Shown one piece after another: positions 2,050-64,000 of a stretch of 64,000 nt of DNA; within the stretch, counting starts at the first letter, position 1; each line of letters opens with the position of its first letter. The notes under the pieces were generated by a model, which had not been told where the DNA came from, did no database searches, and worked only from the letters and a program-made list of their open reading frames with translations. A program made the translations under genes and the position numbers. Source of the stretch: Bugula neritina. Lineage: Eukaryota; Animalia; Bryozoa. The stretch lies in NCBI GenBank assembly GCA_964035545.1, contig OZ037771.1:11660480-11724479 (forward strand). Reading direction: 5' to 3'.

Positions 2050-4680
2050 TATTATAGTATTTTACTTAAATTATACAGTATATTACAATATATCACAGAC
2101 CATCATATTCTAATATATTGCAGCTTTTTACAGTGTACTACAGTGTTATACAATATATTGCAGTGTAATACAGTAGATATTTAAATACACTGCAGTATCT
2201 TTCAATGTTTTACAGTATATTACAGTGTATTACAGTACAATACAACGCATTGAGCGGTTTGACATTGTAAATTACAATGTATTACAGTATGCGGAACGTT
2301 GGAACTTATTAGAGCATATTATAGTTTTATAGTACATTAAAATGTATTAAAGTGTCTTGTGGTATATTACAGTATAATTTCTAGGTTTATCAAATTTTGT
2401 TACAGTATAATTATCACAAATTACAGCGTAATACAGTATATTGTTGTAAATTTATGCTTCACTGCAATCAATGGATTTATTTATTGAAAGCCACTTCACC
2501 AGGTCTGCTAATTAATAAAAATTTATTTACTGCTAATAACACAGGAATAAAATGTATAACAACTAACACAAACTGTTACATAATAGAGAGCTATCAGTAC
2601 ACAACTTTACAGTAGCATTATCAAGTCCTCTCTGCCAGCTAGTCAATTAGGCAAGCTTCACTATACATACACAGCTCCGCCTACTACTAATTATTGTTTG
2701 TGTCCCATTGGCTATCACGGTGGTGCCATAGCACTAAGAGCTGACATGATGCCTACTGCACCAGGTCTCAAGTCAGCTGCGGGGAGTTTTCCTTTTGATA
2801 TAAACATACATCATATAAAATCTCTACAATATTGCGACGCTTAGATTATATCACATTCTAATATTGCAGTATTTTGCAGTGTATTCTAAAATAATGCGGT
2901 GAATATAAAAGTTTGTTACATTGTGTTACAGTGTATTGTAGTGGATTTCAGATATGCATCATCACCCCCAGTATAGCCTGTGGTCTCAATCATGTTACTC
3001 AGTATGCTACTTGAATTATCATTACTCATGCTATGGTTATATAACTCTTCTCTAACACATGTATATAACAAACTCATATGTTGGGGTCATGTGGTACACA
3101 GCTTTCTTAATGGAACGACACTCACCAAGATGACGCAATGTATGTGACGCCATCTTGGTGAGTGTTAACCAATCAAGAATGCCAGGCCATGTCTGCTGCT
3201 GCTAGTTTAGCTCTATTGCACCAATCAAGTGGCAAGACACAATCATATATGAGTAGGATGCATTGCTCTAGCCCAGCAATTGGACTTTGGTACTATACCC
3301 ATGTGACGTTCTGGATTATATTGTTAAGCATCTTATATGACGTATTATTGTGCATTTTCTACTGTTGTAAAGAGTTAGACTTGTACTCTTATTCAGTAAG
3401 TCTACATTACAAGTTCCTGACTGACAAATGATTTCTTCTCTCTCACAGAATAAGAAAGAGGTTATGTTCTAGTGTTGGCTTTTCAGAGTGTACTACAGTG
3501 TAATATAATATACTGCAGTGTATTACAGTATAATATTACATTATATTACAAAATATGTTGCAATCTATTACAGTATATTATAATGTATTACAGTATATTA
3601 CAGTATAATACAATATCTCAAGGTGTGTTGCATGCTATATATTACAGCTTTTGCAGTATATTACAGTGTAATACAATATATTAATTACAGTGTATATTAC
3701 AGTATAGTACAATATATCACATATAACAGTACATTGGAGTGTATTAGAATACATTACAATGTAAAATAATGTAATAATATATTGTACTAATTTCACTGCA
3801 ATATACAGAACTATCTTGTAATATCCTCTAATACACTCCAATGTAAAATACAGTGTATAAAAGTGTATTACAATATAATGCAGTATATTACAGTGTGATA
3901 CATTATATTATATTATATTACAGCATTTTGCAACGTATTAGGGTGTATTACTGTATATTACATTGAATTGCAACATATTGAGGTGTATTGCAGTGTGTTA
4001 CTAAGTCTAATACAATAGTTTGTGATGCATTGAATCATATTACAATTTATTACAGTATATTCAAGTGGGTTAAATTGTATTATAAGGATATTATAATACA
4101 TTACAGTATATTACAATGTATTACAGTACGTTACAATGCATATTACAGTATACTACGGTATGTTACAGTGTATTACAGTCTGTTTAAGTGTGTTACAATG
4201 TATTATAATGTATTAAAATGCACTACAGTATATTACAATGCATATTACAGTATACCACGGTATGTTACAGTGTATTATAGTATATCACAATGCATATTAC
4301 AGTATACTATGGTATGTTACAGTGTATTATAGTAGATTACAATGCATATTACAGTATACTACGGTATGTTACAGAGTATTACAGTATATTGCAATGCATA
4401 TTACAGTATACTACGGTATGTTACAGTGTATTATAGTAGATTACAATGCATATTACAGTATACTACGGTATGTTACAGAGTATTACAGTATATTGCAATG
4501 CATATTACAGTATACTACGGTATGTTACAGTGTATTACAGTATATTACAATGCATATTACAGTATACTACGGTATGCTACAGTGTATTATAGTATATTGC
4601 AATGCATATTACAGTATACTACGGTATGTTACAGTGTATTACAGTATATTGCAACACTAGACAGTGCATTATTATAGCAA
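2050..4680. repeat. Degenerate (TACAGTRTAT)n satellite, with a homogenised 52-bp higher-order array at about 4135-4655
   Basis: The 10-bp tacagtatat motif runs throughout. The unit aatgcatattacagtatactacggtatgttacagtgtattatagtagattac recurs at a 52-bp period (e.g. 4341, 4393, 4445). Confidence 0.9.
2442..2806 (-). mobile_element. Probable solo LTR in reverse orientation within the satellite
   Basis: TGTT...AACA termini. The minus-strand end cctggtgaagt...aataaata...ttgattgca...aca resembles the U5 end of the element C LTR. The TSD is imperfect (tatat/tacat). Confidence 0.45.
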
Positions 4681-5472
4681 TTAACAGCTGGACACACACT
4701 AAGCTATCAAGGAGGAGATAACCAGTTCAATGCATACTTGCACACATATTGACATTAATGAGAATTTTCCCTAAATTGAAGGAAAACACCTATTCTGTGC
4801 AATACTACACAACAATGTTCTTCCATAACTTTATTTTACAATTCATTTTTATACTCTATTACAACTGATTTAGCATTTTTCAGGTTGAGTAGGAAATGCA
4901 GAGACAAGAAACTGTTAAACACAGAGCTCTGCTTAGCCTTATCCTAGCATATCTTTGTTATATATTACTATGTATTGAATTAGGAGAGAAGACTTTAGGA
5001 GACTACTGTAAACTCCAACTCAATGTTACTAACTGACATCCTAAACCAATGATACTTGTTGGTCATTATTGTATGTTACATGATAGCACAACTTTTACCA
5101 TGACAAACCCCTTAATCAATATTTGATTTATAATTATAAATTTATTTCCACACATTGAAAAATAGAGGTACTGTAATAACTGAAATAGCCAAACTAAAGA
5201 GAAAAATTTGCAATTGTAAATATAAAATAAAAAATATAGCATATTAATTCACTTTTGCACATCATAATTAGCATTTGTACAAAAAATTAAATAAGAACAT
5301 ACATTTGCAAATTTTCAAAAAAGTTCACTAGATAATAATAATACGTAGGAAATATACTTTGTGACTTTGATATGTAGAAGTCAGTAGTGACTCAACTAGT
5401 ACACTAGATGAGTCATTGTCATTACAGAATATAACTTGAGTATTCAAGATGATACATGAACCTGAGTTATAT

Positions 5473-8400
5473 TCAGTTGAGTTGGTAAAACAACACCTTC
5501 ATCTCATCATATCTTGGTACAATCAGAGTATTCCCAGAAACATACAAATCATAGACACTAGATGAAGATCTTTCAGTAGAATCAGAAAGATGAGTCACAA
5601 CTTCTCCTGCAATGAAATAATAAAAATTAATACAAATCATATCAGTTACACTTATAAAGCATACAGGGAGCATTACAAATAGAGAGCGTAATTCCCAGTA
5701 TATCACAGCACCAATATAAGTTATACAGAGCCTATAACAGTATGTATATAAAGTAGAGTACACTGGTACTAACATATTACGTAAAGATCTCACCTGTATT
5801 ACTATCCAGTAACCAGAGAGTAGGTGTAGTACTATTATTCATCACATAAACCATTCCTCTCTGATACGCCACACCTTGAGGTTCACTCACGTGTTGAGAC
5901 TCCCAACAGATTTTGCCGTTCGAAATGTCAAGTTTAAAGACTCGGGAGGAGTCAGTGTCAGATATAACAACAAAGTTAGTCCCCACACTACAGATAGCTG
6001 TAGCTTCAGAATCTGTCAGTAGAGGACAAGGGAGGCTTTTCTGTACCTCCCCAGTAAAAGAGTAGAAAGTGAGTGACTTACTAGTACGACTAGGGACTAT
6101 AATCAGATCATTCACTACTGTTAATTTGTTGTAAAAACCTTTGCCGTTGCCAGACCACTTGGTAACTAACTCCCCAGACAAGTCATGGACACAGACTGTA
6201 TAGTTACTCTCAGCACCCACTAAACTGAATACTCTGTCATTATATACTCTCACACATTCCACAAAGCTACCAAGGTTGACAAGGGAATCACCTAATTGGT
6301 ATTCTCCATTGATCAGTTTTATAGTTTTATCATCCAACCCCATATAAGTCATACCTTCATGTTGAAATACTGAGTTACACTTTGATGGGACGTCCACAGT
6401 ATGGGATATGGTCATAGACTGAGGGACAAAACCAGTAGTTTTTAATCCATGTGATACAGTGACTTCTCCATACTGTGGGTAAACAATTCCTACTTCAAGT
6501 ACTCTTTTTTCATCTAAAGTTTAAGAGATATTAACCTATGATAGTTGAATGTTAGCAAGCATTTATACTTATACTAAGAGTAATTATTGAAGGATTGATA
6601 GACAGAACTTGCAAGTGAATATATACAAAGTAAAATTTGTATACTATATAATTACTGAGTTACTTATAAATTTACTAGTAAGATTTGTCCTCCAATGTGC
6701 GAAAACAGAAAAGAGAATTTGGAAAAAGCTACTAGCCTGAGAAATGCATACACTTTGCATGCATAAATTTATGAGTATGAATTGTTTTCATGTTTGGCAA
6801 AGCCAAAAAGGAGACTTTAGAAAAAGCTATTTGCATAAAAACAGTTATAATTATTTTCACTAAAGAAAGACAACCCCTTTCATGAAATACTATTTTACTA
6901 ACCTTTGACCTCCAGAGTTGCTATGTTATGCAGTGTGAGTGAAGGTAGATTGTCAGACACCAACTTGCTCATACTGTCACATATTTCTTCATACCTGGTC
7001 ACCAGATCTACCTGTATGTGTACTAATCATAGTAAATTATGAGATATAAACACATTCATGGTATTATAATGAGTATATAATAGCCATTTTCCTTTTGAAT
7101 ATACAATATTTTGATATTAATTCCAAGGAAGAATCTCACATTTCAAAATAAAATTGTGATATAAATTCCAATTGATGATAACTGACTGTGAAATAACCTG
7201 TAGATCTCATTGCATATTTGATTAGGTATTCCAGAGTAAAGACAAAATATCAGTTTGATTTGTCGATATCTGCAATAAACAATCTGTAGCACAATTTATC
7301 TCTTAGGTTGCACTAAACTCGGAGTATATCGATGACAAGCTGCGTCCACAGCATAGTCGTAGCTCTGAAATACAGCCACTGGGCAAAAGTATGTGATAGT
7401 GGATGAGTAATGTTATATAGCAAAATTATCTTGGTAGTTATTTTGGTGTAGTTCTGTGTAGAGGTGAGAAATAAATACAAAACTGACCTAGCTCAGTATA
7501 CCATCAATATGTTTTACCTGCAGTAATACACAGTTGGCCTGTAACAATGCAGGTAAATTTCGAAGTTATCAACACAATAACATTTATTGCCTATAATATG
7601 AATGAACCACTAAATTTTTATGATTGGAAGTGATTGCTGTATGATTGTTTATCACCTTAAGATAAGTACTTTCCTGAATATAAGAGTTCTAGTCATTAAA
7701 ACTCCCCCACATGATCAGTTTTTTCTTAGTTATAAAATATTTAGATACTAAAATTCCACAACAGTCAACACAGTACATGATAATAGAGCACCTGGTGGCA
7801 GCTGTCAAGTTTAGCCTCCACTTGAAGTTTATGTCTACTCAGCTCTGCCCATTTCACTCCAACATTTTCCTCCATGAAACGAAGCATATCAGATTTTACA
7901 GTCTGCCTCAGTTCCACTAAATCTTTTTCTAATTTCCTGTACTTCATTTGTATTGCTTCCACCTAGTGAATACATCAACCAGGTTATAAACTCATGCAGG
8001 CAATTTTATAGTAGTTATCCCTGTGCGAACCCCATATGGAAAAGTTTTCTCTAAATCGTGCTAAAGAGGTATTCATATATAGGCACAGATGCAATTATGA
8101 TTTATCAAGCAGGCTTTGCTGTGCTACAATTGTAAATGAATTGAAATGTGTATTAGCACAGCTATACTTATGAAAACAAAATAGTCTAACAAAAGAAGCA
8201 GGTAAGAAAAGGTGAGAGTAAAATTAAAAGTACGCAGGTATATTTTAGAGATATATCTCTTATTACACACCAGAATTTAGTTTATTCATCGATTTATTAC
8301 CTCAGTATACCTAATGAAAAACTATACAAAGTACTAATCTAGATATAAGTCGGCTAACTTTCAGCAGAAATTCACCTGTCTAGATGGAAAGCAATATAGC

Positions 8401-11542: not shown

Positions 11543-12619
11543 ATATTCATAGTACTAAGTATATTACTGTTAGCAATAGTATTGTTAGTTGTACTACATT
11601 ATCATTAGACTTACACTTACTCTTGGCATAACAGTGGACGTAGTAACACTAATACTAATAGTAATACTAATGTAATAACTATAAGTATAGAAGTAATAAG
11701 TAATAAGTACTATAGTATTATAAATTATTATATAACCTGAAAGAAAATCCCCTTTCAAGTTTTGTAGTTTCACTTCTACTCTTGGAAGTACTGGTTGAAG
11801 TACTAGTGTCTAGTAATGAAATTACTTACCTCTAATTTGATTAAACTTAAAGAAGCTAAATGAATATCAATATTAATATATACTCTTAATAACTCAGTCT
11901 TAAGTCTATCGTAGTCTAAGTCACCTGTTATTTAGTAATTTACTCTCAGTCTTAGTCTTACAGTCTTATGATCTTAGTCCATAGAGTGAGGACTAAGCCT
12001 AAGGGCCCATTGGGCGTCGAGTGATTTAATTTTATCATTAAATGTAATGATTAAATTTAATCATTATGATATTGCTTTATATTAATCATTATGATTCAGA
12101 TTATGATTTTCATTATGATTATCATTGACATTATGATTATCATTATCATTATCATTATCATTATGTTGTAAATATCATTACACGCAGTCTGAGTCTTTGT
12201 TTCATGGGAAGTAGTAAAACTTTTGCAAGTATAAGAAACTTGCAGTGACATTAGTAGTAAAAACTATAAATATGACACGATATCTATAAGTATAACATTG
12301 AAACAATATAATGTAGTTTTGCTACGGTTGCGGTACCTAGTAATCTAGCGGAAAGTAATGGCAAGTTGACTTTGACTATGGGGAAACCCCTTCCTGATGA
12401 GTGTTGGGATGGATCTTGAACTGTTCGTTTCGGAGATAACACTTTACGAAACTTTGCCGATGCTAAAAACGCATCTAATTAGATGATGAACTGATCCGCA
12501 ATAATTGTCATTGTGACAAGCTGCTTAGCTTGAAGAGTAGACAACTCGTTGTTTTAATTGATACAAAATCCGTAACTAACTATTCACACTGAATTTGGTA
12601 TGTATATTATATATAGTAT
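11543..12619 (+). repeat. Duplicated non-coding block, copy 2, upstream of the TRIM gene; interrupted by element A and resuming at 17994-18160
   Basis: Homologous to 812-1832. Copy 1 shows the empty site (single GTAT in tatatagtatatacg). Confidence 0.88.
12381..12390. promoter_or_regulatory. Candidate NF-kB/Rel site GGGAAACCCC (also at 1414-1423)
   Basis: Matches GGGRNNYYCC and is identical in both copies of the duplicated block; about 1.9 kb upstream of the TRIM ATG. Confidence 0.4.
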
Positions 12620-12975
12620 TGTAGTGAGTCATGCAAAGTACAAATACGGGAATCGCCCTCTCTCTCTTCTGGGAATACTAAGACCCTTATGTAGCAACCA
12701 ATTAGCAGCACCGGAAGGTATGCTTCCGACTCACGTGACACTTCCCGCGGGGTATTAACAATTTATCACGTTGTTGTAAGCGGAGGCTTGAAGTGAAAGC
12801 ATGTGTTAGTAGTTGACTGATGTATAGGATAATTTGATGTGATGTTTACTTTATGCTTTATTGTGGATAATTAATATAATTTCTCGACAGCTACCCTAGT
12901 AATTGCTAGCAGAATAACCAACTAACTATACGCAAGTAGATAACTCACGCACAGTAATTGCACAAATTACTACAG

Positions 12976-12993
12976 TGGTGGCAGCGGTGGGAT
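12976..12993 (+). promoter_or_regulatory. Primer-binding site complementary to the tRNA-Leu 3' end (identical at 18710-18727 and 29107-29124)
   Basis: TGGTGGCAGCGGTGGGAT is the reverse complement of ATCCCACCGCTGCCACCA, the 3' end of metazoan tRNA-Leu(AAG/TAG). It starts 1 nt after each 5' LTR. Confidence 0.9.
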
Positions 12994-13009
12994 CTTGCGT
13001 ATAGCAGTC

Positions 13010-13960
13010 ATGGCAGAAGACGGCACAGAGCTACCCATTCCACTGAATGAAGGTGAGAGAGATAATGTTGATATACCTGTGGAACCAGTGGTGTTAGAAG
13101 AAGAAGTGAGAATTCCTAGAGAGCATGGTGAAGACAGATACCGGCTGAAGGCGCCCACCTTCACAGGCGAAGAAGCAGTGGAACAGTTTATCCAAGAATT
13201 CCAAGATGTGATGGAGATTGCACAGTGGCCGCCAAGGGTGGCGTTGCTCAAGCTCAGGATGGCGCTGACCGACAAGGCTAAGCCGTACGGAGCGGGACCT
13301 GACATAGACGGAATCTTTGCTTCTCTGCGGGCCCGCTTTGGCATCTCCCCCATAGATGCGCGGGCCCGCCTACAAAGGCTGCGGCGTGATCCTCACACGT
13401 CGCTACAAGAGCACGCTGCCACGGTGTACCCACTAGCGCAGATCGCGTTCAGCGATCTGCCTCCGGTACACCGTGAGAGGTATACTTATGATGCCTTCGT
13501 GCAGTCCATTAACGACTTGGGGCTCCACCATCAATTCCAAGCGAGGGGAGTCACCACGGTCGAAGATGCACTTGCGGTGGGAGAAGCCTACCTCATGGCG
13601 ACTCATACGCACCGCAACCGCGTGGCCTCCCGCCAGGTGGCCACGGAGCACACTACTGCTCATACCGAACCAAACGTGGAACCCTCCGCGGTGGCTAATG
13701 TGAACCAGATGTCACTAGCATCAAAAGTCGCACAGATGACTGACATGCTAGATAAACTGGTCGCCACATTAGCTCCCCCAAGCCAGGTAGATACCGCCCA
13801 TGAGCCTTGCGGGCCGCAGGTACAATCACCAGGCATGGGGCACAACTTCTGCTGGGGATGCGGAAGGCCAGGACATTTCCAGAGGAACTGCCCTCAACTC
13901 CAACAAGGGTTAAACTACCACGGCCCGCAGATGTTCCCACCTCCTGCGGGCCGTCTGTAA
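13010..13960 (+). CDS. gag: Gag of element A (capsid-like region and CCHC zinc knuckle), intact
   Basis: Open 316-codon frame; APTFTG..VEQFIQEF..AQWP capsid-type motif; knuckle CWGCGRPGHFQRNC. Confidence 0.9.
   Translation: MAEDGTELPIPLNEGERDNVDIPVEPVVLEEEVRIPREHGEDRYRLKAPTFTGEEAVEQFIQEFQDVMEIAQWPPRVALLKLRMALTDKAKPYGAGPDIDGIFASLRARFGISPIDARARLQRLRRDPHTSLQEHAATVYPLAQIAFSDLPPVHRERYTYDAFVQSINDLGLHHQFQARGVTTVEDALAVGEAYLMATHTHRNRVASRQVATEHTTAHTEPNVEPSAVANVNQMSLASKVAQMTDMLDKLVATLAPPSQVDTAHEPCGPQVQSPGMGHNFCWGCGRPGHFQRNCPQLQQGLNYHGPQMFPPPAGRL
13909..13953 (+). promoter_or_regulatory. Putative -1 programmed ribosomal frameshift signal (G_UUA_AAC plus 10-bp hairpin)
   Basis: GTTAAAC at 13909-13915 is in the gag frame, followed by a 5-nt spacer and the stem cggcccgcag/ctgcgggccg. 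The -1 frame is the protease ORF. Equivalent signals are at 27151 and 30031. Confidence 0.75.
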
Positions 13961-14922
13961 ATCACCCAGGGAGGCCCGCGCGTCTGCCGCCCCGCTGGGC
14001 GCCGCGCGGAGATGCTGTGAAGTGGCGACCCCCGCGGCAAGTAGGCTCAAGCCACTCGCCGCCTGGGTCCTCTACACCACTCCAACACCAACACGGATCC
14101 GGCAGACGGTTGACCTCAGAGCCTGCGAGGGAAACGGTACAGGCGCCGCAAGGCGTACCGCCCCAACCTCGGCAGCTGGTCAATAGTCGTCGCCAAACGT
14201 GGACCCCTCGACCCACAGCGAGGGAGGTGCAACCACGGCACACACAGCTGCAGCCACACGGAAGTAGCTACTTCCTGCCAGGAAAGCTAGCCGGCAAGCC
14301 TGCCAACTTCCTCCTGGACTCAGGCTGCACCACCAACCTCCTTAGTCGTCAGTTCTTTGACACCCTCAGCGCTAAGATCAAGGACGGGTTGGCACCGTAT
14401 GAGGGGGATCATGGCACCCTGGCAGACGGGTCGTGCATTCCCTTCTACGGCATTATTGAGCTGACTGGTTACGTCCGTAACCAGGCCATCCGAGAGACGT
14501 TTATCGTCGGGCAGCTCAACGAGGACGCTATCCTCGGGATGCCATTCTTACAACGACACGGATGTCGCATCGATTTCAGTAAATCTGCGATGATCATGGG
14601 CGACAGGGAGCTCGCTTGTGTCGATAAGTTTGGTCGTCCTCTAGCGGGAGCAGTGCAGGTAGTACGGAGCTGTACTATACCAGGCCACTCCCAGGCTACC
14701 GTCCGCTGCAAGATAGATGGTGGCCAAACCTCTAAGTTGGGAGTTGTCGAAAATACGCACTCGAGAGTCCAACTTGCCCATAGCTTTAGCCGGCTTACGG
14801 GGCAAGAAGAGATCTCAGTGCAGTGTGTCAACCCCTCCTCAGAGACAGTAGACCTACCACCCAGGTCCATGCTGGGCCGCTTCCATCCTGTTCAGGAGGA
14901 AGCCATTGGGCCGTCGTCGTGA
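13909..14922 (+). CDS. pro: Retropepsin aspartic protease region of element A (-1 frame relative to gag)
   Basis: Active-site motif FLLDSGCTTN and DAILGMPFL motif. Confidence 0.88.
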   Translation, partial: VKLPRPADVPTSCGPSVNHPGRPARLPPRWAPRGDAVKWRPPRQVGSSHSPPGSSTPLQHQHGSGRRLTSEPARETVQAPQGVPPQPRQLVNSRRQTWTPRPTAREVQPRHTQLQPHGSSYFLPGKLAGKPANFLLDSGCTTNLLSRQFFDTLSAKIKDGLAPYEGDHGTLADGSCIPFYGIIELTGYVRNQAIRETFIVGQLNEDAILGMPFLQRHGCRIDFSKSAMIMGDRELACVDKFGRPLAGAVQVVRSCTIPGHSQATVRCKIDGGQTSKLGVVENTHSRVQLAHSFSRLTGQEEISVQCVNPSSETVDLPPRSMLGRFHPVQEEAIGPSS

Positions 14923-16254
14923 GCTACGACGGAAGGTCCTCAGCAGAGCCCGTCTCAAGGGCGGAGGACCGTCCCAACCCACGCCTCCCATCCTCCAGGG
15001 ACGCGTGGCTATACAGGCAACGGAAAGCGCCAGGCTATGGCTAGGTTGCCACATGGGTACAGTGAGGCGTCCCGCCACACAGACCACGACGCCCGCCTAA
15101 ATAGAGCAGGCTGTCGTGAGGTACCACGGGCGGCGAAGACCGCCCCTGCTCAGCAACTCCAACAGAGGGCTGACACGCCCCCGGAGGCTGTCCAGAGCCT
15201 CCGCGCCAAACCTGTATGGGCTGGTAACGTTAGGGAGCTGCCGAAGCTCCAGGAAAGCCTTCCTGGGGTGGTAGCCGACGTGTACCGAGCGAAACAGGAA
15301 GGGCGACGAGCCAGTAGTAAACAACGGCGACAGGGATGCGCCGAGTTACGGCTGTACTGTCAACGTTGGAACTCTCTGCGGGTCGGGCCAGATAGTCTGC
15401 TGACCATGACCTTGGCCGCCAACAGCAGACAGCCAGCCAGGAAGAGGGTCGTCTGCCCAGCTGCCATCCGCCGGGAGTTGATACAAGACACCCACGAGAA
15501 GACTCAAGGAGGAGTCCAAGGGGTGGTCACCAAGCTACAACTCCGGTGGTACCGGCCCAACATGGAGCGGGATATCCGGCGCAGAGTGAGACGGTGCAAA
15601 GTCTGCCAGACCAACAAGCATAGCCGTCTCCCTGGTGAAGCGGGGCGGCAGACGCATTGTGCGAGAAGGTCTTGGCAAGCGGAGACTGTCGTCCTGGCCG
15701 GAAACACCTCCATGACACCTCAGGAAGACTTGGCGAGGCGAGAAAGGCCACTTCCGTCCTTGAAAGTGCGCCCACCGCCCCCAACGTCAAGCCTGCCATC
15801 ACCACCACTTCCGGAACCGGAAACGGGTCCGGAAGTGCAAAAACCCCCCGTGGGAGGGGCTCCGCAAGGAGATACCAACGTAGGAACAACCGTCACAAAC
15901 AGGCTGGAAAAACCACCCGTGAGACATAACAATCCACGGGTGAGCACACCGCCTCCCACAGTGACGACGCCTCCAGAACCACACACTAGGCAACTTCCAG
16001 CGTGTCTCAGAGACTGTGTACGTGACCGCGGTATAAGCGGCAGTAACGAAAGTCTAGAAAGGCCTCGCATGGGAAAACAGGCAAAGAGACGTGGGAGTTG
16101 TGAACACCACGGAAATCTCAACTTTTGCCTCGGCGGAATCTCACACGAGATTCATCCGCTGGAAGTGAAGAGCCCTAGTCACGTTTCACAACCACGCTGT
16201 CCGGTCTTTTCCTACGTTGATGCAGTCAAGAGTAGACGTGCCACTAAACAGTAA
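14923..16254 (+). pseudogene. Internally deleted pol remnant of element A (integrase zinc-binding region only), in frame with the protease after a single TGA
   Basis: Alignment to B shows junctions at about 15160 (RT and RNase H lost) and about 15720 (integrase core lost). It retains DTH...WYRPNMERDI..VRRCKVCQ. Confidence 0.8.
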
Positions 16255-16277
16255 TCATTTACCGCTCTCATTCCAAA

Positions 16278-17335
16278 ATGTCTTACTATTCTGGATCGAA
16301 GGGTGAGTGAATTATGTTTTTGGTACGATAACTAGACTGCATCAGTCAGCTTTAGCTACATTAGCTAGCGAGCTGGAGATTCGATAATGATAAACAGTGG
16401 TGGGAATACACGTCGACTTTGATTTTAAATAATCTGCCATAGCGAGTGTGTTCTCCATCAACTATTCATTAGCCTGAATCTCACGAGTGTAACTGAACAG
16501 AGTACCGGTCAGGCTGTACACGCCGACGGTACCTCAGTGTATAATCTTTAACACTGCTACTCTTTCAGATCACACTCGAGTGACCACCTTCCGGTCACGG
16601 GACCAGCCAACCTCTCTGCCTATGGAAGAGGAACCTGTAATGGAAAATGGCATACCCGTGGTGCTTCGTCGACGACACCGCTGGGTGTCACCCACGACGG
16701 AAAGGAGAATTGAGGAAGCCTGGGGACCCAGCGGACCCCACCGAACCTGCCAGGTCTGCTTCGAGGAGTGCCCGTCACACCGCTCCCTGTGTCTACATGT
16801 AGACGCCCATTTTCTACTCCACTTCTGCCCATGCGGGTTCCACGACGTATACCCGTATCCCGTGACAGTCCATAAGCTGAGCTGCTTCGCCGGAGAGAAC
16901 CATACTGTTGATGAGGATAGTTTCCCCCAATACCTGGATGCCATCAAGCCAGTCATCAGGAAGGCTATCACCCTGGCTGCACTAGCGTCAGGGTTCCAAG
17001 TACTGCTGTTATCCGCCCGCCATAAGTCCCCTATGGTTCAGGGCCTGTCTCCTACCCCCGTCAACCCTAGCAACACCCCCAAATTAGAAGGAATAACAAT
17101 ACCTCCTCTAACAGAGACTACTACAACCCCGCCAAGGCCTAGCCAGCTGGCTAATGTAGAAGAGCGGCTTGTAAGACTACAGGCCGAGTTCACACAACTT
17201 GCCCCTGACTTGCTGGATACGACGACAGGTCTATACCAGTTGAAGGACTCAGTGGGGCGACTGAAGAGGCGGCTACGTGCCCGACAGGCTCGACACAGAG
17301 CACGCTCGCTACAAGAGTCAGAGTCCACCCAATGA
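16278..17335 (+). CDS. Element A accessory gene: spliced tandem zinc-finger and coiled-coil protein (about 263 aa); exons 16278-16302 and 16569-17335
   Basis: aaaATG...AAGG|GTGAGT donor and tttaac..tctttcAG acceptor give an in-frame phase-1 join. Fingers: CQVC-x12-H-x3-H and CPC-x12-H-x3-C. Heptad-rich C-terminus. Confidence 0.8.
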
Positions 17336-18742
17336 GTATGCCTGGGGTAGGCACCTTTCGTAGAGCTGTATTTCGTCTGGAAAGTGACGAGTGCTCCGAC
17401 ATTGGCCCGCGTGCTGGTAAGCACCCTCTCTCTTTATAGCTGACTGGATGTGTGTGTTCGATCACCCTGTTTACTTCTGTATATAAATGTTGTCGTGCTC
17501 AACTATTTCTCTTCTTCCTTTTTGTGGGTTTACTTATGTATGTTTTCTTTTTTTGGATTATTGTATAGTTTTTCTTTATGTGTTTTTTTTGTATTGTGTT
17601 ATCAGAAAGTAGGGCTTTCTGCTGGGGGGGGGGCGGTGTAGTGAGTCATGCAAACTACAAATACGGGAATCGCCCTCTCTCTATTCTGGGAATACTAAGA
17701 CCCTTATGTAGCAACCAATTAGCAGCACCGGAAGGTATGCTTCCGACTCACGTGACACTTCCCGGGGTATTAACAATTTATCACGTTGTTGTAAGCGGAG
17801 GCTTGAAGTGAAAGCATGTGTTAGTAGTTGACTGATGTATAGGATGATTTGATGTGATGTTTACTTTATGCTTTATTGTGGATGATAAATATAATTACTC
17901 GACAGCTACCCTAGTAATTGCTAGCAGAATAACCAACTAACTATACGCAAGTAGATAACTCACGCGCAGTAATTGCACAAATTACTACAGTATATGCACT
18001 TTCACACTATGACTATATTTTTCTGACTGAAAAGCTAATACAATGTTCCTTTCACAAAACTTGAAGAAACAATTTGTGTGAAGGACAAAAAGGCAAAACT
18101 GTTCAGTGTTCAACAGCTTAGTGGAAGAAGGTCATTTCTTCTGAAATAATATCATGGCTATATCACAGTGTAATACAATCTACTGTAGTCCATATATTAC
18201 AGTATAATATTAAAATATATTACATAAGGTTATACTATATATTCGAGAATATTACAATGCATCTATTACAGCAGTATATTATTATTACAATGTATAGCAC
18301 TATCTCACAGTGTATTACAATATATTACAGTGTTTTACCGTGTAATATGATAATATAATATTGCAGTGTACTATAATTATAGATATTGCAATTTATATTG
18401 CAGTACTATCTCGCAATGTTTTACAGTGTATTGTAATGGGGCGTGGTTTACGCGTCACGCGTACCCCCCTGCCAATCACAGAGAGTGATTGGCAACTATT
18501 GTATTAAGCCAAGCAGAACAATTATTAGTTAATTAACGTGTACTTGCAGTGATGTAAAGTAGCAATCGTGGTGATACTTATAGAGATTTTTACATTATAT
18601 TATTACAGTTTATATTAAAGTTTACAAATGAAACTACCGGTGAATTGCTTGTGACTAAAGGCCAATAACTCACTAGAAGCCTACATAATCATTGTGCATC
18701 GCACAACAGTGGTGGCAGCGGTGGGATTATTCTAGCTGGGAC

Positions 18743-21700
18743 AATGAAAAGACGGAGAACATGACAGAACACACCACAAAACACCCGGGAGGTAAGCCAG
18801 CCAATTTCTTGCATATGGAGGAGGTGTATAGAGATAAACTGACCGCTCCCACCTTCACGGGTGTAGAAGATGTAGAGCAATTCATTGAGGAATTCCACGA
18901 TGTAGCAAACGTCGCTTAATGGCCGCCACAAGTAGCCCTCGTCAAGCTGCGGGAAGTATTGACGGAGCGCGCTAGACCGTTCGGACAAGGACGGAGCGTG
19001 GCGGAGATATTCACTACACTACGGAGCCGTTTTAGCACCTCCGCTCTAGAAGCCAGGGCCCGTCTACAAGTGCTACGCCAGGCGGAAGACACTCCGCTCC
19101 GCGACCACGTTGCCTTAGTGAAAAGACTGGCATGGAGCGCGTACAGCGACCTGCCAAAAGCACACCGACGGAACTTTACTCTCATTGACTTCATGCAGTC
19201 CCTAAAAGATGTTGGTCTCTGCCATCAACTACAGGCAAAGGGAGTGACCACTCTAGAAAATGCCCTACAAGTCGGGGAAGACTACCTCCGGGCCGAGCAG
19301 TTATATACAGGGAAAACAGAAGGCGCACAAGTCACCGAGGAGATAGCGCAATCACTCGGGGAGAAGATGGGCCGGCTGAGCGCCAGACTGAAGCAGATGG
19401 CAAAGACCCTTACCAATGCCGGCCCCCCTAACCGAGAACAAAAAGGAGAGACCTCGGAGAAGACTACCCGGAGTAGGAAAAATAACAAGCCAGGGCCTCC
19501 TCACTCCGGAGACCCTCAACCCAGAAAGAGGCCCCACGGGCAGAAGAGAGAGCAAACACGGGATGTACCCCGTGAATGGCAGATACCACGACGGACCATC
19601 CGCCCTATCGGGCGACAGGAACCGTTCGTGCTACCAATCACCAACCGCTTCAGCCAGCTACTGGAGACGGAGCTGGCCGGCGAGGTCCCTCGGGACATCG
19701 GAGGGGGATTAAACACCCCTCCGCCGAAGAAGCGGCGCCAGCAGACCACCAAACGGACACCACGCCGTTTGACCGAGGCTACGCATGCTGGGGAAGTAAG
19801 GTTGCAACGGCATGGAGAAAGCTACTTCCTGCCCGGGAAGGTAGCCGGCAAGGCCGTCACGTTCTTGCTAGACTCCGGTTGCAACACGAATCTCCTCAGC
19901 AGACGAGTCTTCGATGCCCTCCCTGCCCAGGTGAGGAAGGGGCTAGCTCCCTACACTGGGGAACCTGGCACCCTTGCAGACGGGTCGCGTATCCCCTTCT
20001 ACGGTGTTGTAGAGCTGCCTGCCCGCGTCCGCGACCAGGCCATCCAGAAAACCTTTATCCTCAGCCAGCTGGAAGAGGACGCTATCCTGGGGACGTCGTT
20101 CTTGAAGCGACACTAGTGCCACATGGACTTCCATAAGTCCGCCATACTAATGGCCGGCCGGGAGCTTTCCTGTGTCGACAAGTTCGGTCGCCCCCTGGTC
20201 GGGGGTGTGCAGGTGGTCCGTAACTGTACGGTACCCGGCCGCTCCCGGGCGACCATTCACTGCAGAGTGAATGACCGTCAACTCTCTGGACTAGGGGTCG
20301 TTGAAGGAACGCACAAGAGAATCCAACTCGCCAGCAGCTTGAACCGGCTGACTGACCGAGGGGAGATCTTGGTGCAGTGTGTCAACCCCTTTTCATAGTC
20401 GGTGACACTACCGTCTGGATCCCTATTGGGCCGTTTTCACGCGGTCCAAGAGGGAGACATAAGACCGTCGCTGGGCGAAGCGACGGAGGGTCCCCAAGAG
20501 CGCCCGTCTGTACGGTGGGGGACCGTCCCGGAACACGTCCAAGAACTATGCCAGTCAGCCTGTGAAGGCTGTGCGGGCAACAAGGAGCGCCAAGCTATGG
20601 CCCAGTTGCTGCGCCAGTATGGGGACGTGTTCAGCAGCGGAGACCAGGACGTGGGCCTGACTAGAGCCGTCCGTCATGAGATACCGCTAGCTGCCGGGAC
20701 TCTGCCTATCCGCCAACCCACCAGGAGACTGGAGCCAGAGAAAGAGAAGGAGGTCAGCCGACAAGTCTGGGATCTTTTGGACCGCGGCCTCATAGAGCCT
20801 GCACATAGTGCGTGGAGCTCGCCGGTCGTTCTGGTCTGGAAGAAAGACGGCAGTTGGCGGTTCTGTGTGGATTACCGCAAGCTTAATAGCGTAACCATAC
20901 AGGACGCCTACCCTCTACCTCGGATCGACGAATCTCTGGACGCCTTAACCGGCAGCAAGTACTTCAGTACTTTAGACTTGCTGAGTGGCTACTGGCAAGT
21001 CCCCCTCAGTCCCGACGCCCAGGAGAAAGCGGCGTTCATCACCAGAGACGAGTTGTGGAAGTGGAAGGTACTGCCCTTCAGGTTAACTTCTGCTCCCGCT
21101 ACCTTCCAGCGGCTCATGGAACAGTTTCTCAGCGGCCTCCACTGGAAGACATTGCTCGTCTACCTCGATGATGTCATCGTGATCTCCCCAGACTTCACGA
21201 CCCAAGTCAGTCGTTTGCGGGAGGTCTTCGAGCGACTCCGGTGTGCCGATCTCAAGCTCAAACCTTCCAAATGCGCTCTTTTGCAGCCGGAGGTGAAGTA
21301 CCTGGGGCACGTAGTCGGCCGTAATGGCGTGGCGACGGACCCCGATAAGGTGCGGGCTGTGACCGACTGGGTCACCCCCCAGGAGTTGACCGGACTCCGG
21401 GCTTTCCTGGGGCTGGTAGGGTATTACAGACAATACATACCAGACTTTGCGGGGGTTGCACAGCCGTTAAATCGGCTCACCGCAAAGGGAGTGACCTGGC
21501 AGTGGACGTCCGTCGAACAAAGGGCATTTGACAGTCTCAAGAGCCGCTTGCTAGAGGCTCCAATTCTGGCCTACCCAGACCCCGCTCTGGCGTACGTTCT
21601 TGACACTGACGCCAGTGACCAGAACGTTGGCGCTGTGCTGTCGCAAGTGCAGGAAGGCCGTGAAGTAGTTGTAGCTTACTACAGCAAATCACTCCCACCC

Positions 21701-24073
21701 CCGGAGCGCAATTACTGCACCACTTGCAAGGAGTTACTGGCAGTAATCAAGTCAGTGAAACACTTCCGGCCTTATCTCTACGGTAGGCCGTTCCGCTTGT
21801 GAACGGACCACGCCTCTTTGATCTGGCTGTGTAAGAGAGCTGAACCGTCCAGTCAAGTCGCCGATGGATCGAAGTCCTAGCTGAATTTTCATACCGGATC
21901 GAACATCGACCCGGTAGGAAACACGGCAATGCGGACGGACTGAGTCGGCGGTCGGACGAGGGGTGCAAACAGTGTCACAACATCGAGAGAAGGGATGGGG
22001 GTCCCCCAAGATCCGAGTTGGCGACACTGGACCACCCTGGAGTGAGCTACGACTGGGACCAAGGTCAACTCAAGCCAAGGAGTCCTAACCCACCGGAGGC
22101 TGTCAATAACCTCCGCGCCAACCCTGTCTTGGCTCGTAATGTCAGAGAGCTGCAGAAACTCCAGGAGGACCTCCCTGGGGTGGTAGCCGACATATATCGA
22201 GCTAAACGGGAAGGGCGACGACCCAGCGAAAAACAGCTGCGGCAGGGGTGCGCCGAGTTACGGCTATACTGCCAATGCTGGGACTCTCTGCGGATCGAGC
22301 CAGATGGTCTGCTGACCATCACCTTGGCCGCCGATCAGGGACACCCTGGTCAAGAAAGGGTGATCTGCCCAACCGCCATGCGCCGGGAGCTAGTATGGGA
22401 CACTCACCGACAGGCTCACGCCGGAGTTCGGAGGGTGCTTACCAAGCTAAGGCTCCGGTGGTATTGGCCCAATATGGAGCGTGACGTCCGCCTAAGGATC
22501 AAACAATGCGAAATCTGCCAGGCCAGCAAGCCTGGCCGTCTTCCCAGGGAGGCGGGACGACGTAGGCTATATGCTGGTAGGCCCTGGGAGGTGGTAGCTG
22601 TTGACTTGGTCGGACCCATGCCCATCACCCCCAGAGGAAACAACTGGATTCTAGTGCTGACCGACCACTTCACTAGGTGGGCCGACGCACTGGCCATTCC
22701 AGATGCGTTTGCCCCGACAGTGGCCAGCACACTAGATCAGAGTGTATTCTGCTACTTTGGGTTGCCCGAGCAACTACACTTGGACCTGGGGTCGCAATTC
22801 CAGTGTTAACTGATAAGCGACCTCTGTCGCCTCTGGGGAGTAAACCAAAGTAGGACCACTCCATACCACCCTCAGGGTAACGGAGTGGTCGAATGCAACA
22901 ACCGGATGCTGGGCGATGCACTCCGCAGTCTACTGCTCGGCCGAGGCCAGGAGGAGTGGAATCTCGTGTTGCCGCAGGTCATGCGGGCCTACCGCAGCAC
23001 GCCACATACCAGCACTGGCGAGACCCCCAACCTCTTGACACTCGGTCGTGAGACACGAGTGCCCGACCACCTCGCCTATCATATTCCAGAGCCAGAATAC
23101 TCTGTCCACGAGTACGCTGGGGACTTGATAGAGCGTCTGAAAGTCGCACACGAAATACTGCAGGATAAGCAGTGGCAGGTGCGACAGGAAGACGCTGATG
23201 AGCCACCCCTCTACAAGACCGGAGACTGGGTCTGGATGATCAACTACCGTAGGCGTCGAGGACAGGCGGCTAAACTACAGCCTAAGTTTGTAGGACTCTA
23301 CGCGGTAGTTGAGGTGATGCCCAATCACACTTACAAGTTGGAGCGGTCTGGACAAATATCTGTCCAGAATGAAGCCCGCTTGAAACCCTATTGGGCTAGC
23401 CCAGGTGCGGCCGGGGGTGCCCCCCATTGTTAGAGCCGAGGAGGCAGAGAACAATGCGCGGGCGGCGGCGGCATAAACCCAATGATGAGTGGGTCATGTC
23501 ACGGACAGAAGACTTGGCAAGGCAAGAGGGCCACACCCTCTGCTTCCAGAGCCAAGCCGTCCGGCCCCAGGGCTACCACCACCACTTCCGGAACTAAATA
23601 TACTTCCGGAAGGGCAAAACCCCCACACGGGAGGGGCTCCGACCGGAGAGAACAGAGGGGAAGAGAGAATGACAGCCGACGGGAGGCAGGAAACACCACC
23701 AGTGGAGAATAACAACCCACTGGTGAGTACACCACCTCCCTCACCAGCTACCCCACCTTCCCCGGCGTCTTCCACTAGTACATCTCCCCCCCTTGAAAGG
23801 GGACAACGTACTAGAAGACCCCCAGCTTATGTTCAAGACTTCGTATGCGACCGCATTACAAGCGGCAGGTATGAAAGTCCAGCTGGGCGCCGTACGAAAA
23901 GACTGGCAGCAAAGCTTGGGAGTTATGAACACCACGGAAAAACCAAGTTTTGCGAAAACGGAATAGCGAATGGAATTACCACTCTCCGGGCACATAGTTC
24001 CGGTCTCGCCCAACAAACACGCTGCCCAGCCTTTTCCTAAGCCGACGCGGTCAAGAGTAGACGTGCTTTTTAA
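18743..24073 (+). pseudogene. pol: gag-pol of element B (gag, protease, RT and RNase H in one frame; then integrase), with several nonsense and frameshift lesions
   Basis: Motifs: LLDSGC (PR); DYRKLN, LDLLSGYWQ, YLDD (RT); TDASD, ELLAV (RH); H..H..CxxC, AVDLVG and a GPY/F-like PKFVGLY (IN). In-frame stops at 18917, 20114, 20396, 21800, 22807 and 24038; frameshifts at about 21865 and 23420. Confidence 0.93.
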
Positions 24074-24103
24074 TCCATCCACATCCAAGCTTGAACGTCG
24101 AGT

Positions 24104-25250
24104 ATGAGTATAAATACCGAGTTCCCAGGTAAGCTTGCTTAGATCTAACACTCCACTAATGGAAATAGATCTCACCTCAGTCAACTCTGATTTAATCGAT
24201 CTGATTGAATCACAGTTACTGGAGACAGAGTCACACGTGAATGACGACGAGGACATAGTAATGGCGGACGATCTACTAGATCTGGAGCTTGATACTATGT
24301 CTCTCAGTCAGTTTACACGTTCTGACACAGTCTCTCGAGTGCCGTATAAAAAGATGTATGACTCTCAGACTAGTAACAGTCGATTGTCATCAGAATTATG
24401 CTGTAAAGATCAAATTCGATCTAACAATAATTCTGCTCTTTTAGACGCCACTCGCTCTTCCAACTACGGAGACATGCCACCACTAGAGCTAGCCTGGAAC
24501 GGCGAGACACCTCCCACATCTCTACCTGACGTGCTACTCCAACAGCATAGCTGGGTCGCACCAGAAACAGAAGAGCAGATTCAGCTACACCGCGGCCATG
24601 ATGAATGCACCACCTGCAGGCTGTGTCAGCAGCACTTCTCTACCCATCGCCGTTTGCGCGTCCATGTACCGCAACACTTCTTAACTACCCTCTGTCCCTG
24701 TGGTGAATTTAGTTACCACAGGGACTACATCCTCAGACACCAGCGCACCATGGAATGCCATGTGGGGCACCTATATGATGTGGATCAATATAACTTCCCC
24801 ACCTTCCTCAACCTGATCAAGCCTTTCATTAAAGACCTCCCCCGTTTTGAACGACTGAAACAAGGATTCCCCTCCCCTCGCATCATCACTCATGGACCGT
24901 GTCCGAAACCCCCCAGACACAGGAAACCTACAAAGCCACCCCACTCTCCCCAAGCACAAACTGTACCTCGACCCACCACCCTACCTCGAGTCCTGCTCCA
25001 AAGAGTCGAGATACCTCGGAAACGACGCTCCCCCTCTCCCGTTTCTATACAACCTTCTTCTAAACGCCGCTGGCATTCCTCCTCAAAACGGCAGGCTCCC
25101 AACGCTTGCAACTTAAAAGAAGTTGAAATCCGCATGTACGACTTGGAAGCTGAGGTTCAACGGTTAACCCCCAGAGTTGCTGCAGCCGCCTCAGAGCTGA
25201 AGACTCTCAAAGCCTTTGTGGCCCTACTCAAACGAGGCGACCAAGACTGA
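24104..25250 (+). CDS. Element B accessory gene: spliced tandem zinc-finger and coiled-coil protein (about 276 aa); exons 24104-24128 and 24445-25250
   Basis: agtATG...CCAG|GTAAGC donor and ctaac..ctcttttAG acceptor give an in-frame phase-1 join. Fingers: CRLC-x12-H-x3-H and CPC-x12-H-x5-C. The ORF is intact. Confidence 0.8.
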
Positions 25251-25958
25251 TGATGACAGTATCCTCCCTCCCTACTTCTCTAACTATCCGCACCTGCAGG
25301 TGGTGACAATCTCTCTCTCTCTCCGTTCATTCCTCCTCTGGCCGTATCTGATCTCGGTGCTACATGATCTCCGTATGTGGATTGTATTATTCTTTTTGTT
25401 ATATTTTTTATGTCAATACGTAATTTTGCTCAATAGTGTGTAAATTCCCTTGGGGAATATGTCCACCTTACGTGATGTTCAGATCTTATTTTTTTTTTGG
25501 GTTTTTTTTATAATATTTTGTTTTATATTTTTTGTTGTTGTGGGTGAATATCAGGAAGGTGTGCTTCCTGCTGGGGGGGGGGCGGTGTAATGGGGCGTGG
25601 TTTACGCGTCACGCGTACCCCCCTGCCAATCACAGAGAGTGATTGGCAACTATTGTATTAAGCCAAGCAGAACAATTATTAGTTAATTAACGTGTACTTG
25701 CAGCAATGTAAAGTAGCAATCGTGGTGATACTTATAGAGATTTTTACATTATATTATTACAGTTTATAATAAAGTTTACAAACGAAACTACCGGTGAGTT
25801 GCTTGTGACTAAAGGCCAATAACTCACTAAAAGCCCACATAATCATTGTGCATCGCACAACAGTATTACAGTGTATTACAGTGTATATTGCAATACAATA
25901 AAATTTGCATTAAAGTGTTGGACATTGTTTTGTAGAGATTTTATATTATCTATGTTAT

Positions 25959-26578
25959 GTGGCATTTAAAAAGGTAAATGAAGGGATTTATATTCAAAGT
26001 CGACATGGGGCTGATCTCTTTGATGTGGCTCAGTTCAAATTTAAGGCCCATACTACCAAACACCTAGTCAGAGAGATGTTGTTTGCTGATGACAGCACTT
26101 TGGTGGCACATTGCGCTGCAGATATGCAAGTGCTAGTGAACAACTTTGCAAAAGCAGCGGCTCAGTTTAGCTTAAAATTCAACATTAAAAAGACAGAATG
26201 CATGTACCAGCCAATCAAATTTATTCAGCCTTCACCTGAACCTGAAGTTGTCATGATAGATCAAGAACCAGTTGTACTTGCCTCAGACTTTACTTATCTA
26301 GGAAGCACTGTTTCCTGTACGGCAAAAATAGATAAAGAGCTACGGAGCAGACTAGGCAAAGCAAGTGCGGCTTACGGAAAGCTGCAGCAGGGACTCTGGA
26401 ACAACAGACATGTATCTATAAGGGTAAAGTGTAAAGTTCAGAGCGGTGGTGCTTTTAAGCCTGCTGTATGGAGCAGAAACTTGGACAATATACAGGACAC
26501 AGATAAAGAAACTAAGCGCTTTCATGATGAGGCAACTAAGAGACATAATGGCTGTAAAATGGTATGACAAAATTACGA
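25959..26578 (+). mobile_element. RTE-clade non-LTR retrotransposon (LINE) reverse transcriptase fragment, frameshifted
   Basis: Motifs MLFADD, KFNIKKTECM, FTYLGS and LLYGAETWT are typical of the RTE RT C-terminal region. Confidence 0.85.
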
Positions 26579-26579
26579 G

Positions 26580-28006
26580 CTTACAGCTCGGGATGTTATT
26601 GTGCAGCTCCAAGGGCTTAGGAGAGATCCTAAGACTACCTTGAGGGAGCACGCTACCGTAGTTGAGCGGCTAGCACAAGTCGCCTATGGTGACTTGCCTG
26701 CGAATGGTCGGCAGAGTCTGGCATTAGATGCTTTTTTTCAGTCTATTAACAACCTAGGGCTGAAGCAACACCTGCTGGTAGCTGAAGTTGAGACCATGGA
26801 TCAAGCTCTCAGGTTTGGGAATGCTTATTTCCAAGCCCACAGTACGTGCCGGCTTGGGGCGACAGCACAAGAAGTCGAGGCCGACGACAACTTGTCGACA
26901 TTGACGCTGTCGGCCAAGACGGCTGTACATGTCACCACGGCGGCAGCCAACGAGCCGACTAGCCGACTAGCTTGACCACAAGCTTGGTTCGAGAGCTGTT
27001 AGCTAAGATCAAGCAACTACACCAACAGCCGACAGCCGAGCGATCTACCAGGTTGCCGACAGCTGTCGTCGGCAGGCGGGGCTCCATATGCTAGGGTTGT
27101 GGTAATGGTGAGCACCTTATACAAAGCTGCCCCCATGGTAGAGGGAGGCAATTAAACGAAAACGGTCCATGGTAGACTCCGCCGACCGTGGGCCTCGGTT
27201 TAATTTTCCGAGGCCAAGGCCCAAACCCAATCGAGTGAGGAGGCCGCCTTCGCCAGAGTGGCAAGCCCCAAGGAGAGTTAGTAAGCCACAAGGCCTGCCA
27301 AAACCTCCGGCTTTGGCACTCAAAAACCGCTTTGAAGGTTTGCCTGATGAGGGGATGTACGACAAGTGGGAGCGAGACAGTGACTTCCATCGGTTGCCCA
27401 CAGGAGCACAAGACCGAGCATTCACTCGGCCGACCGTGTGTGAGCAAGACCGAGATGTAACCCGCTTGCCCACTAGACGTCGACGACCCCCTCCCAACTG
27501 AAATGCGCAGCTGCATTCCCAACTCCATGCACATGAGATGTTACCTCCAAAGACGAACTGCTCAGTGAGCGCCCAGCCATATGGAAGCAGCTATTTCTTC
27601 CCCGGTAAACTTGTCGGAAAAGCAGTCACTTTCCTATTGAATACTGGGTGCACCACTAATCTTCTGAACTGGCGTCTGTTTGACACACTCAGTGCTAGGG
27701 ACCGGGCGAACCTGGGGCCATTTGAGGGAGAACACAGCACATTGGCTGACGGGTTGTGTATTCCTTTTTATGGCGTGATAGAGTTGACTGGTAGAGTCCG
27801 TGATCAGGCGATCAGCAAGACCTTCATCGTCAGTCAACTCAAGGAGGACGCCATCTTAGGCATGCCATTTCTGAAGCGACACAGGTGCCACACTGACTTT
27901 AACAAGTTTGCGGTAGTGATGGCCGGGCGTGAGCTGGCTTGTGTGGACCGATTTGGCAGACCCTTGGTGGGGGAAGTGCAGATAGTACAGCGCTGTACTG
28001 TACCTG
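26580..28006 (+). mobile_element. Fragment D: truncated Gypsy gag-pro of the same lineage (no LTRs)
   Basis: Gag LQGLRRDPKTTLREHA..., degenerate knuckle C*GCGNGEHLIQSC, slip site ATTAAAC with hairpin, and protease FLLNTGC (D to N). It ends at the start of the element C LTR. Confidence 0.85.
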
Positions 28007-28121
28007 TGTGGTGGCTCGTGGAGCTACCAGCAACGTAGTAACGGGGAATTATTATTTCCCCCACAAGTGCGGCACGGGGTTACGTAGATGACCCGGAACA
28101 ATGGACAGCCAATTAGCTATA

Positions 28122-28876: not shown

Positions 28877-29138
28877 TACTGACAGTTATTAGTAGTAGTA
28901 GTAGTTTCCTGCTGTTTATTGAGTTGAGAATAGAGTGTTGAATTGTATGGACGTAGAAATTAACTGAATGTATTTGTATAGTTTTTGTGATGTATTCTTG
29001 TGTGTAAAATATATTAGTATTAACTCGACTTATCCTGGTGAAGTTCTCTAGCAAATAAATAGACTTTCTTGATTGCACATCAACCCAAATCTGAAAATTA
29101 TAACAGTGGTGGCAGCGGTGGGATAGTGCACATCCAAG

Positions 29139-63868: not shown

Positions 63869-64000
63869 CCAAAGCAGCAAAGATGTTTATTTTTATTTGA
63901 TTGGTCAACAAAAGATGATTAGTAATTTTAGTTTTATATAGAATTTTTGAAAGTTTTCTGATAAGACATAGAAATTGTCAAGGTTTCTATATAAACTATA

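Follow-up and report, generated by a model that had tools for sequence, protein, structure and literature searches.

The 64,000-nucleotide stretch of Bugula neritina DNA analyzed here (the window) harbors three LTR elements, termed A, B and C, in which pol is followed by a further open reading frame. This raised the question whether that frame belongs to a spliced accessory gene and what the function of its product might be. An initial annotation had described an intron-containing gene that starts with a 25 nt ATG micro-exon and had likened it to the regulatory genes of complex retroviruses. The spliced accessory gene behind pol is real, and its layout is richer than first described.

Element A (12620-17989, + strand) is bounded by LTRs of 97.5% identity, namely a 5' LTR with TG..CA ends (12620-12974) and a 3' LTR (17637-17989) that follows a polypurine tract (PPT; tract and LTR together 17620-17989), and is flanked by the target site duplication (TSD) GTAT at 12616-12619 and 17990-17993. 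Its primer binding site (PBS, 12976-12993, +) has the same sequence as those of B (18710-18727) and C (29107-29124) and is presumably that for tRNA-Leu. Gag, protease and a pol with an internal deletion (13010-16254, +) follow; A is without RT, RNase H and integrase core, and the frames of gag, protease and the accessory gene stay long and open. Element B (18432-25862, +, LTRs likewise 97.5% identical) has its 5' LTR at 18432-18708 and its 3' LTR at 25586-25862, between GTAT duplications at 18428-18431 and 25863-25866, and its gag-pol region (PR, RT, RH, IN; 18761-24073, +) is interrupted by stops and frameshifts. TG..CA LTR ends, a 4-bp TSD, PBS and PPT are all present in A and B. The pol frames are broken in both B and C; C ends inside exon 2, and a search for its 3' LTR found none. 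Pfam domains were obtained in the order gag, then PR-RT-RH-IN, in B and C, and the best PDB match of the RT was Ty3 RT (E 4e-80), foamy virus Pol being far weaker (E 1e-36). By domain order and RT similarity, A, B and C are assigned to the Ty3/Gypsy LTR retrotransposons. They are homologous to each other (65-77% identity in aligned blocks), so that they represent a single inherited architecture and three independent events are ruled out. The earlier statement that three diverged elements have the same layout therefore holds for the layout, which is common to all, but the copies count as one inherited design.

Related fragments surround these elements. Another B-like exon 2 is represented by its 3' end (3-230, +), behind which lie a PPT and LTR-like sequence at about 505-810. 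A fourth, fragmentary gag-protease of the same group (26568-28040) adjoins both an LTR-like piece that resembles 505-560 and a fragment with an RT match (25914-26567), which by eye looks LINE-like. In total, five related elements or fragments were found within 35 kb, next to a 10-bp satellite. B is embedded in this 10-bp TACAGTATAT-type satellite, which also fills about 2100-4700, and the TSDs of A and B are both GTAT, two TSDs being a small sample. The shared TSD of A and B and the satellite setting of B suggest a target preference.

In all three elements the first ATG past the pol stop opens the 25 nt micro-exon, and all parts of the gene lie on the + strand. In A, the micro-exon (16278-16302, donor GTGAGT) is followed by a conserved, structured GT-AG intron of 266 nt (16303-16568, ending in TTTCAG) and by exon 2 (16569-17335), which encodes two zinc fingers, a linker, a long C-terminal helix and an Arg-rich end. 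B has a micro-exon at 24104-24128 (donor GTAAGC), a 316 nt intron at 24129-24444 (ending in TTTTAG) and an exon 2 at 24445-25250 that encodes zinc fingers, a basic Arg/Ser/Pro stretch and a C-terminal helix. In C, the corresponding parts lie at 34138-34162 (donor GTGAGT), 34163-34432 (270 nt, ending in TTTCAG) and 34433-34875, where exon 2 is cut off after the zinc fingers. When the annotated coordinates of ATG exon, donor, intron (266, 316 and 270 nt) and pyrimidine-AG acceptor were re-read, all were correct. Likewise, A was found at position -3 of the ATG in 3/3 elements, branch-like motifs were found 17-20 nt upstream of the acceptor, and the phase-1 join was in frame in each case, giving products of 263 (A), 276 (B) and 155 aa (C). 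The introns thus have the hallmarks of the U2 spliceosomal class, from GT donor and branch point to pyrimidine tract and AG. The claim that length and phase of the micro-exon are kept despite divergence was borne out, as pairwise identities amounted to 10, 18 and 10 of 25 nt (A versus B, 10/25). The spacer to the pol stop differs in length among A, B and C (23, 30 and 26 nt), while the micro-exon length is constant, and its second codon encodes Ser in all three, from distinct codon families (TCT, AGT and TCA). The introns of A- and C-type contain stops, so that splicing is needed for the conserved N-terminal part of exon 2; the B intron itself reads as an open frame that runs continuously into exon 2 and has an in-frame ATG at 24159. 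A conserved AG 42-45 nt before the ATG was considered as the acceptor of a coding cassette and rejected, the lengths to the donor (67, 68 and 70 nt by hand count) being frame-inconsistent. A literature search for trans-splicing onto the micro-exon returned papers on chaetognaths and no bryozoan evidence.

Removal of the intron was seen in X1, a public sequencing run whose run type is not on record. It was the one run listed as matching the elements, and no RNA run was among the matches. Since its contigs reach 59 kb and many unrelated contigs have a depth of about 50 or 100, it is suggested to be genomic DNA. On A, X1 contained a joint at 16301/16568 whose ends are GT..AG and which leaves out precisely 266 nt, at coordinates predicted beforehand; a single contig supports it, with 28 nt on its shorter side at 80% likeness. 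Its depth was 843, the other joint contigs listed being mostly at about 100, and it was the sole GT..AG joint among the 15 listed of 43. An intron-less copy, which the initial annotation had proposed to look for, was thus found for precisely the predicted intron of A. Its further proposal, that the intron is normally retained in the RNA that is copied, is supported by X1, which contains both the intron-less junction and intron-containing contigs; the intron-containing cover of A is about 10x deeper than the skip, depth not being equal to copy number. For B, no intron skip was seen among the 15 listed of 25 X1 joints, and an intron-containing contig of depth 1112 spans the donor. An intron-less junction in DNA is the expected footprint of spliced RNA after reverse transcription, and spliced-out foamy-virus proviruses occur. 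PMC12786077 recounts the Ty intron-loss assay. Intron-less DNA copies may provide a natural gauge of how often spliced RNA is packaged. X1 contained two more deep joints without GT-AG ends, at 15885-15973 (depth 3998) and at 16471-16558 (depth 1478), of which the latter deletes most of the 3' half of the A intron, branch motif included. With its missing pol domains, its long open frames for gag, protease and the accessory gene and its dense cover in X1, A possibly represents a non-autonomous family.

The acceptor appears to serve a second first exon as well. The gag start forms an alternative first coding exon of 43 nt in A (13010-13052, +), 31 nt in B (18761-18791, +) and 43 nt in C (29139-29181, +), each followed by a phase-1 GT donor, so that such a donor lies within the first 31-43 nt of gag in 3/3 elements. 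In the database protein P0010, the first 14 residues match the Gag start of A at 12/14 positions and are followed by exon 2, the switch lying exactly at the predicted donor and acceptor. P0010, known as a protein sequence, is a single entry among the 120 homologues of A exon 2 that were listed out of 134. Its contig of 5.3 kb exceeds the length expected for spliced RNA, which hints that the locus is a DNA insertion. Together, the gag donors and P0010 indicate that one acceptor takes two donors. Errantivirus env is expressed by a splice from the leader, and the initial annotation had set the new gene apart from it on this ground. That contrast fails, as the gag donors in 3/3 elements and P0010 show an env-like long join. 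Like errantivirus env, the gene is a third ORF, lies behind pol and can be joined to the 5' end by long-range splicing; unlike env, it encodes Cys/His fingers and a basic tail, not an envelope glycoprotein. The third ORF gave no match to env families in Pfam, and an F- or gB-type glycoprotein was not found. The bryozoan errantiviruses described in PMC13524379 have a gB-type env and the order gag-env-pol.

Two alternatives concern these joins. The gag-leader splice could be the only one to give a functional mRNA, as for env, with the micro-exon donor being secondary and giving occasional intron-less copies, and B-type elements using mainly the unspliced long frame. P0010 and the open B-type intron frame are in line with this, and no micro-exon-initiated protein was present among the homologues spanning the acceptor. 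However, ATG, Ser codon 2, 25 nt length and phase are kept though the sequence has drifted down to 10/25 nt, and the junction seen in X1 is the micro-exon one, which makes this explanation very unlikely. It is exceedingly improbable that the splice signals are chance matches handed down from one ancestor and the junctions ordinary deletions: the three copies are indeed non-independent and internal deletions are numerous in the family, but two different joins were found, each using its predicted donor and both the same predicted acceptor, and the stops in the A- and C-type introns leave the conserved N-terminal part of exon 2 dependent on splicing.

The product of exon 2 is a zinc-finger protein. 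Its core consists of a C2H2 finger (Cx2C-x12-Hx3H) and an atypical second finger (CxC-x12-H); the ligands of the first finger are invariant in 32/32 rows of alignment A4, except for the second His (at least 90%). The PDB profile matches were C2H2 proteins (best E 9e-6). In Pfam, the zinc fingers of the window copies fall below the cut-offs, and those members that were scanned belong to no family of their own. The AF2 model (pLDDT 83, pTM 0.58) shows small fingers and a 64-residue C-terminal helix, and a single-sequence model of the finger domain had a pLDDT of 45. Exon 2 of A and B are 29% identical at the protein level; the A-type ends Arg-rich and the B-type carries an Arg/Ser/Pro stretch, which we take, by eye, to resemble nuclear-localization or RNA-binding motifs. 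Foldseek against PDB and BFVD gave nothing with E < 0.001, VIA-align matched the coiled coil alone, and the ESM Atlas returned unnamed clusters and generic C2H2 clusters.

These features allow for a transcriptional role: the same spliced gene may encode a DNA-binding protein that activates transcription from the LTR or an internal promoter, as Tas does, with the micro-exon heading a transcript from the internal promoter and the acidic extension of the B-type acting as activation domain. Tandem C2H2-type fingers resemble DNA-binding proteins, and the weak Foldseek matches (E 2-4) were to Kaiso; the long helix could dimerize, and the micro-exon ATG, which is the first after pol, needs its own capped RNA. 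In addition, an internal promoter drives the accessory genes of foamy viruses, which have a 301 nt internal intron (PMC13220597). On the other hand, RNA started in the LTR is the simplest source of an intron-less DNA copy, and the gag-leader splice requires no internal promoter. We regard the activator as unlikely.

A profile search returned 344 cluster representatives at E <= 0.001, and among 28 proteins checked for their source, the named organisms were limited to Watersipora subatra and Bugula neritina. In annotated genes of these two species the finger domain is present in one or two copies (P0211/P0352, XP_067940963-4; P0274, XP_067944745; P0348/P0353, KAF6040922-3), and these genes may be domesticated copies or the host source. 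In P0354, from a distant element, the finger domain lies in frame behind Gypsy RNase H and integrase, and in P0342, P0345 and P0351 motifs resembling the pol C-terminus were recognized by eye upstream of it. An open intron frame (at least 85 aa upstream) was found in 28/50 spanning homologues of B-type versus 1/34 of A-type, a count subject to gene-caller bias. More distant proteins contain, in frame, a motif that the B intron encodes, and these motif-bearing proteins fell outside the supported A/C and B clades when a midpoint-rooted tree was built from 61 selected finger domains, over the few alignment columns (121) available. The simplest reading of these sequence comparisons is that a coding linker attached to pol became an intron and then lost its frame in the A/C line; the intron was probably coding in the ancestor. 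The family would then form a series of pol-fused (distant), open-frame (B-type) and closed-intron (A/C-type) members, and seems to show coding sequence in the course of turning into an intron, within an element that has to pass through RNA. Given the open intron frame, an unspliced long form is possible in B-type elements.

Searches of viral, metagenome and prokaryote collections returned no DNA locus of the family, and the single match (L001) was a phage. The integrase scan gave 79 + 9 loci, one of them close but short, and none of them encodes the zinc-finger domain. The literature search returned no description of a zinc-finger Gypsy family within its scope; Repbase, subscription papers and the supplements of PMC13524379 lay beyond it and may contain one. 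The accessible parts of PMC11952523, PMC13524379, PMC3798896 and PMC2836005 describe nothing like it.

The fusion in P0354 and the pol-C-terminus-like motifs in P0342, P0345 and P0351 also bear on a further alternative, in which the zinc-finger module is a partner of integrase that targets integration or binds chromatin, first fused and later split off as a spliced gene. The common TSD GTAT of A and B and the clustering of five elements or fragments in 35 kb by the satellite would suit it, two TSDs again being few. Against it, A is without an integrase core and its gene is still intact, and the subgenomic fusion to the Gag leader is closer to CERV, the regulatory protein of Cer1, than to a targeting domain. 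This explanation is decidedly unlikely.

Conservation of exon 2 and intron was compared as well. Exon 2 of A versus C gave a dN/dS of 0.25 over 143 codons and is thus under purifying selection. A and C share 74% of their intron sequence, compared with 42% (19/45) of the four-fold sites in exon 2 and 51-64% of gag-pol. No region of B-type proteins is as conserved as the one encoded by the intron (78% versus 70% for the zinc fingers), which points to constraint at the nucleotide level. In a BLOSUM test of protein-level selection on the B intron, the zinc fingers themselves were no different from neutral. At the acceptor, which is spanned by 50/76 B-type homologues and by 34 of the 120 A-type homologues listed, residue -1 was L27/S13/V9/I1 in B-type and S29/L4/E1 in A-type, and residue 0 was D49 and D32/G1/S1, respectively. 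These junction residues, rather than codons, fit a conserved acceptor AG among the homologues.

The introns fold better than shuffled sequences in A and B (z of -3.9 and -5.2) and less so in C (-1.4). However, in a sliding-window control the intron ranked 5/19 windows in A and 3/27 in B, and much of gag-pol also folds better than shuffled sequence, which weakens the idea of the intron as a uniquely structured element. An RNA response element is suggested. Covariation was found for 3/49 pairs (A/C) among three introns only, the three-way alignment being unreliable, and an Rfam search of the intron gave nothing credible. Over gag-pol and intron (13333-16570, 19290-24420) the folding z was strongly negative, and it was mostly about 0 in exon 2, 3' UTR and LTRs, which are the parts left in the long-spliced mRNA. 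In the alignment fold of the three introns, donor and pyrimidine tract form a pairing in which B shows one compensatory change, and a long central hairpin closes by a compensatory pair in B (by eye). The donor/tract pairing or the central hairpin could damp splicing, these being single events only.

Among known systems, Cer1, a Ty3/Gypsy element of C. elegans, comes closest. Its Rev-like protein CERV is encoded by five exons that are spliced together, has its N-terminus in common with Gag, carries a cysteine finger and a zipper, and is needed to export the unspliced genomic RNA, in which the Cer1 splice sites are skipped (PMC10309623, PMC3315495). The elements described here resemble Cer1 in being invertebrate Gypsy elements with a Gag-shared N-terminus, a Cys finger and splice sites bypassed in genomic RNA; the joining of a post-pol ORF to the Gag N-terminus was found as gag donors in 3/3 elements and in the P0010 protein. 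CERV has 517 aa, five exons and a G-protein-like domain, with no homologues reported outside nematodes, and unlike CERV the present protein has C2H2-type fingers and an extra post-pol ATG micro-exon. Within the homology and fold searches, CERV was absent among the named matches (bryozoan only), and no fold match had E < 0.001. Complex-retrovirus-like regulation in an invertebrate Gypsy element is already known from Cer1 CERV; what is new here is a variant with an apparently unrelated protein. Cer1 was the sole invertebrate LTR retrotransposon with a proven spliced regulatory protein found in the literature, and an unrelated zinc-finger solution in another phylum would, if true, mean that complex-retrovirus-style regulation originated repeatedly in Gypsy elements.

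Other systems are alike in part. Foamy viruses carry the accessory genes Tas/Bet near the 3' LTR, with a 301 nt sense intron and an internal promoter (PMC13220597, PMC3798896). They likewise have a short sense intron within an accessory gene near the 3' LTR, and differ in being retroviruses with env, a proven internal promoter and unrelated accessory proteins. The plant LTR elements Ogre and EVADE also keep sense-strand introns in genomic RNA, yet theirs lie within gag-pol, serve the Gag/Pol balance and involve no accessory gene (PMC12786077). Likewise, sORF1/sORF2 of the Drosophila MDG1 group are non-env accessory ORFs in an invertebrate Gypsy lineage, but are reported as unspliced and mostly upstream of gag, sORF2 being a membrane fusogen (PMC11952523).

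Taken together, we consider it somewhat probable that the acceptor of the accessory gene is joined to both the micro-exon and the gag-start exon and that the product is a nuclear regulator of the unspliced RNA. RNA started in the LTR would remain mostly unspliced and then be copied. In a fraction of it, the common acceptor would be joined to either the gag donor or the micro-exon donor, so that the zinc-finger/helix protein comes with two different N-termini. The micro-exon ATG might reach a ribosome through an internal promoter, an upstream splice or re-initiation after pol. As the cases of CERV, Rev and foamy-virus Tas/Bet suggest by analogy, the protein might be a nuclear factor that targets the RNA or LTR of its own element and lets unspliced RNA be kept, exported and copied. 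Both junctions would have arisen by splicing followed by reverse transcription, inefficient splicing would leave the intron in most copies, and the intron, once a coding linker behind integrase, may now be kept partly as an RNA signal. A CERV/Rev-like role is our best guess by analogy, because the Gag-leader architecture matches Cer1 and because unspliced RNA has to leave the nucleus in any element whose splice sites are strong; the integrase fusion in a distant element and the occurrence in annotated bryozoan genes also fit other roles. A more far-reaching version, tentative and somewhat unlikely, is that a bryozoan-centered Gypsy lineage built its own complex-retrovirus circuit: a zinc finger once part of pol would have split off, the linker would have become a regulated structured intron, and the two putative isoforms would bind intron or LTR and switch between spliced and genomic RNA as in Rev/RRE and Tas/Bet.

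Elsewhere in the window, two ORFs on the - strand (38204-38896 and 39246-39965) contain ShK-like domains (Pfam E 3.5e-8 and 1.9e-4) and are likely a host gene, and an ORF at 5780-6520 (-) gave weak beta-propeller/NHL matches. Tandem arrays with 29-bp and 36-bp periods were found at 46474-47109 and 63614-63901, respectively. Two repeat copies at 1414-1647 and 12381-12614 are 76% identical, and one of them directly flanks element A.
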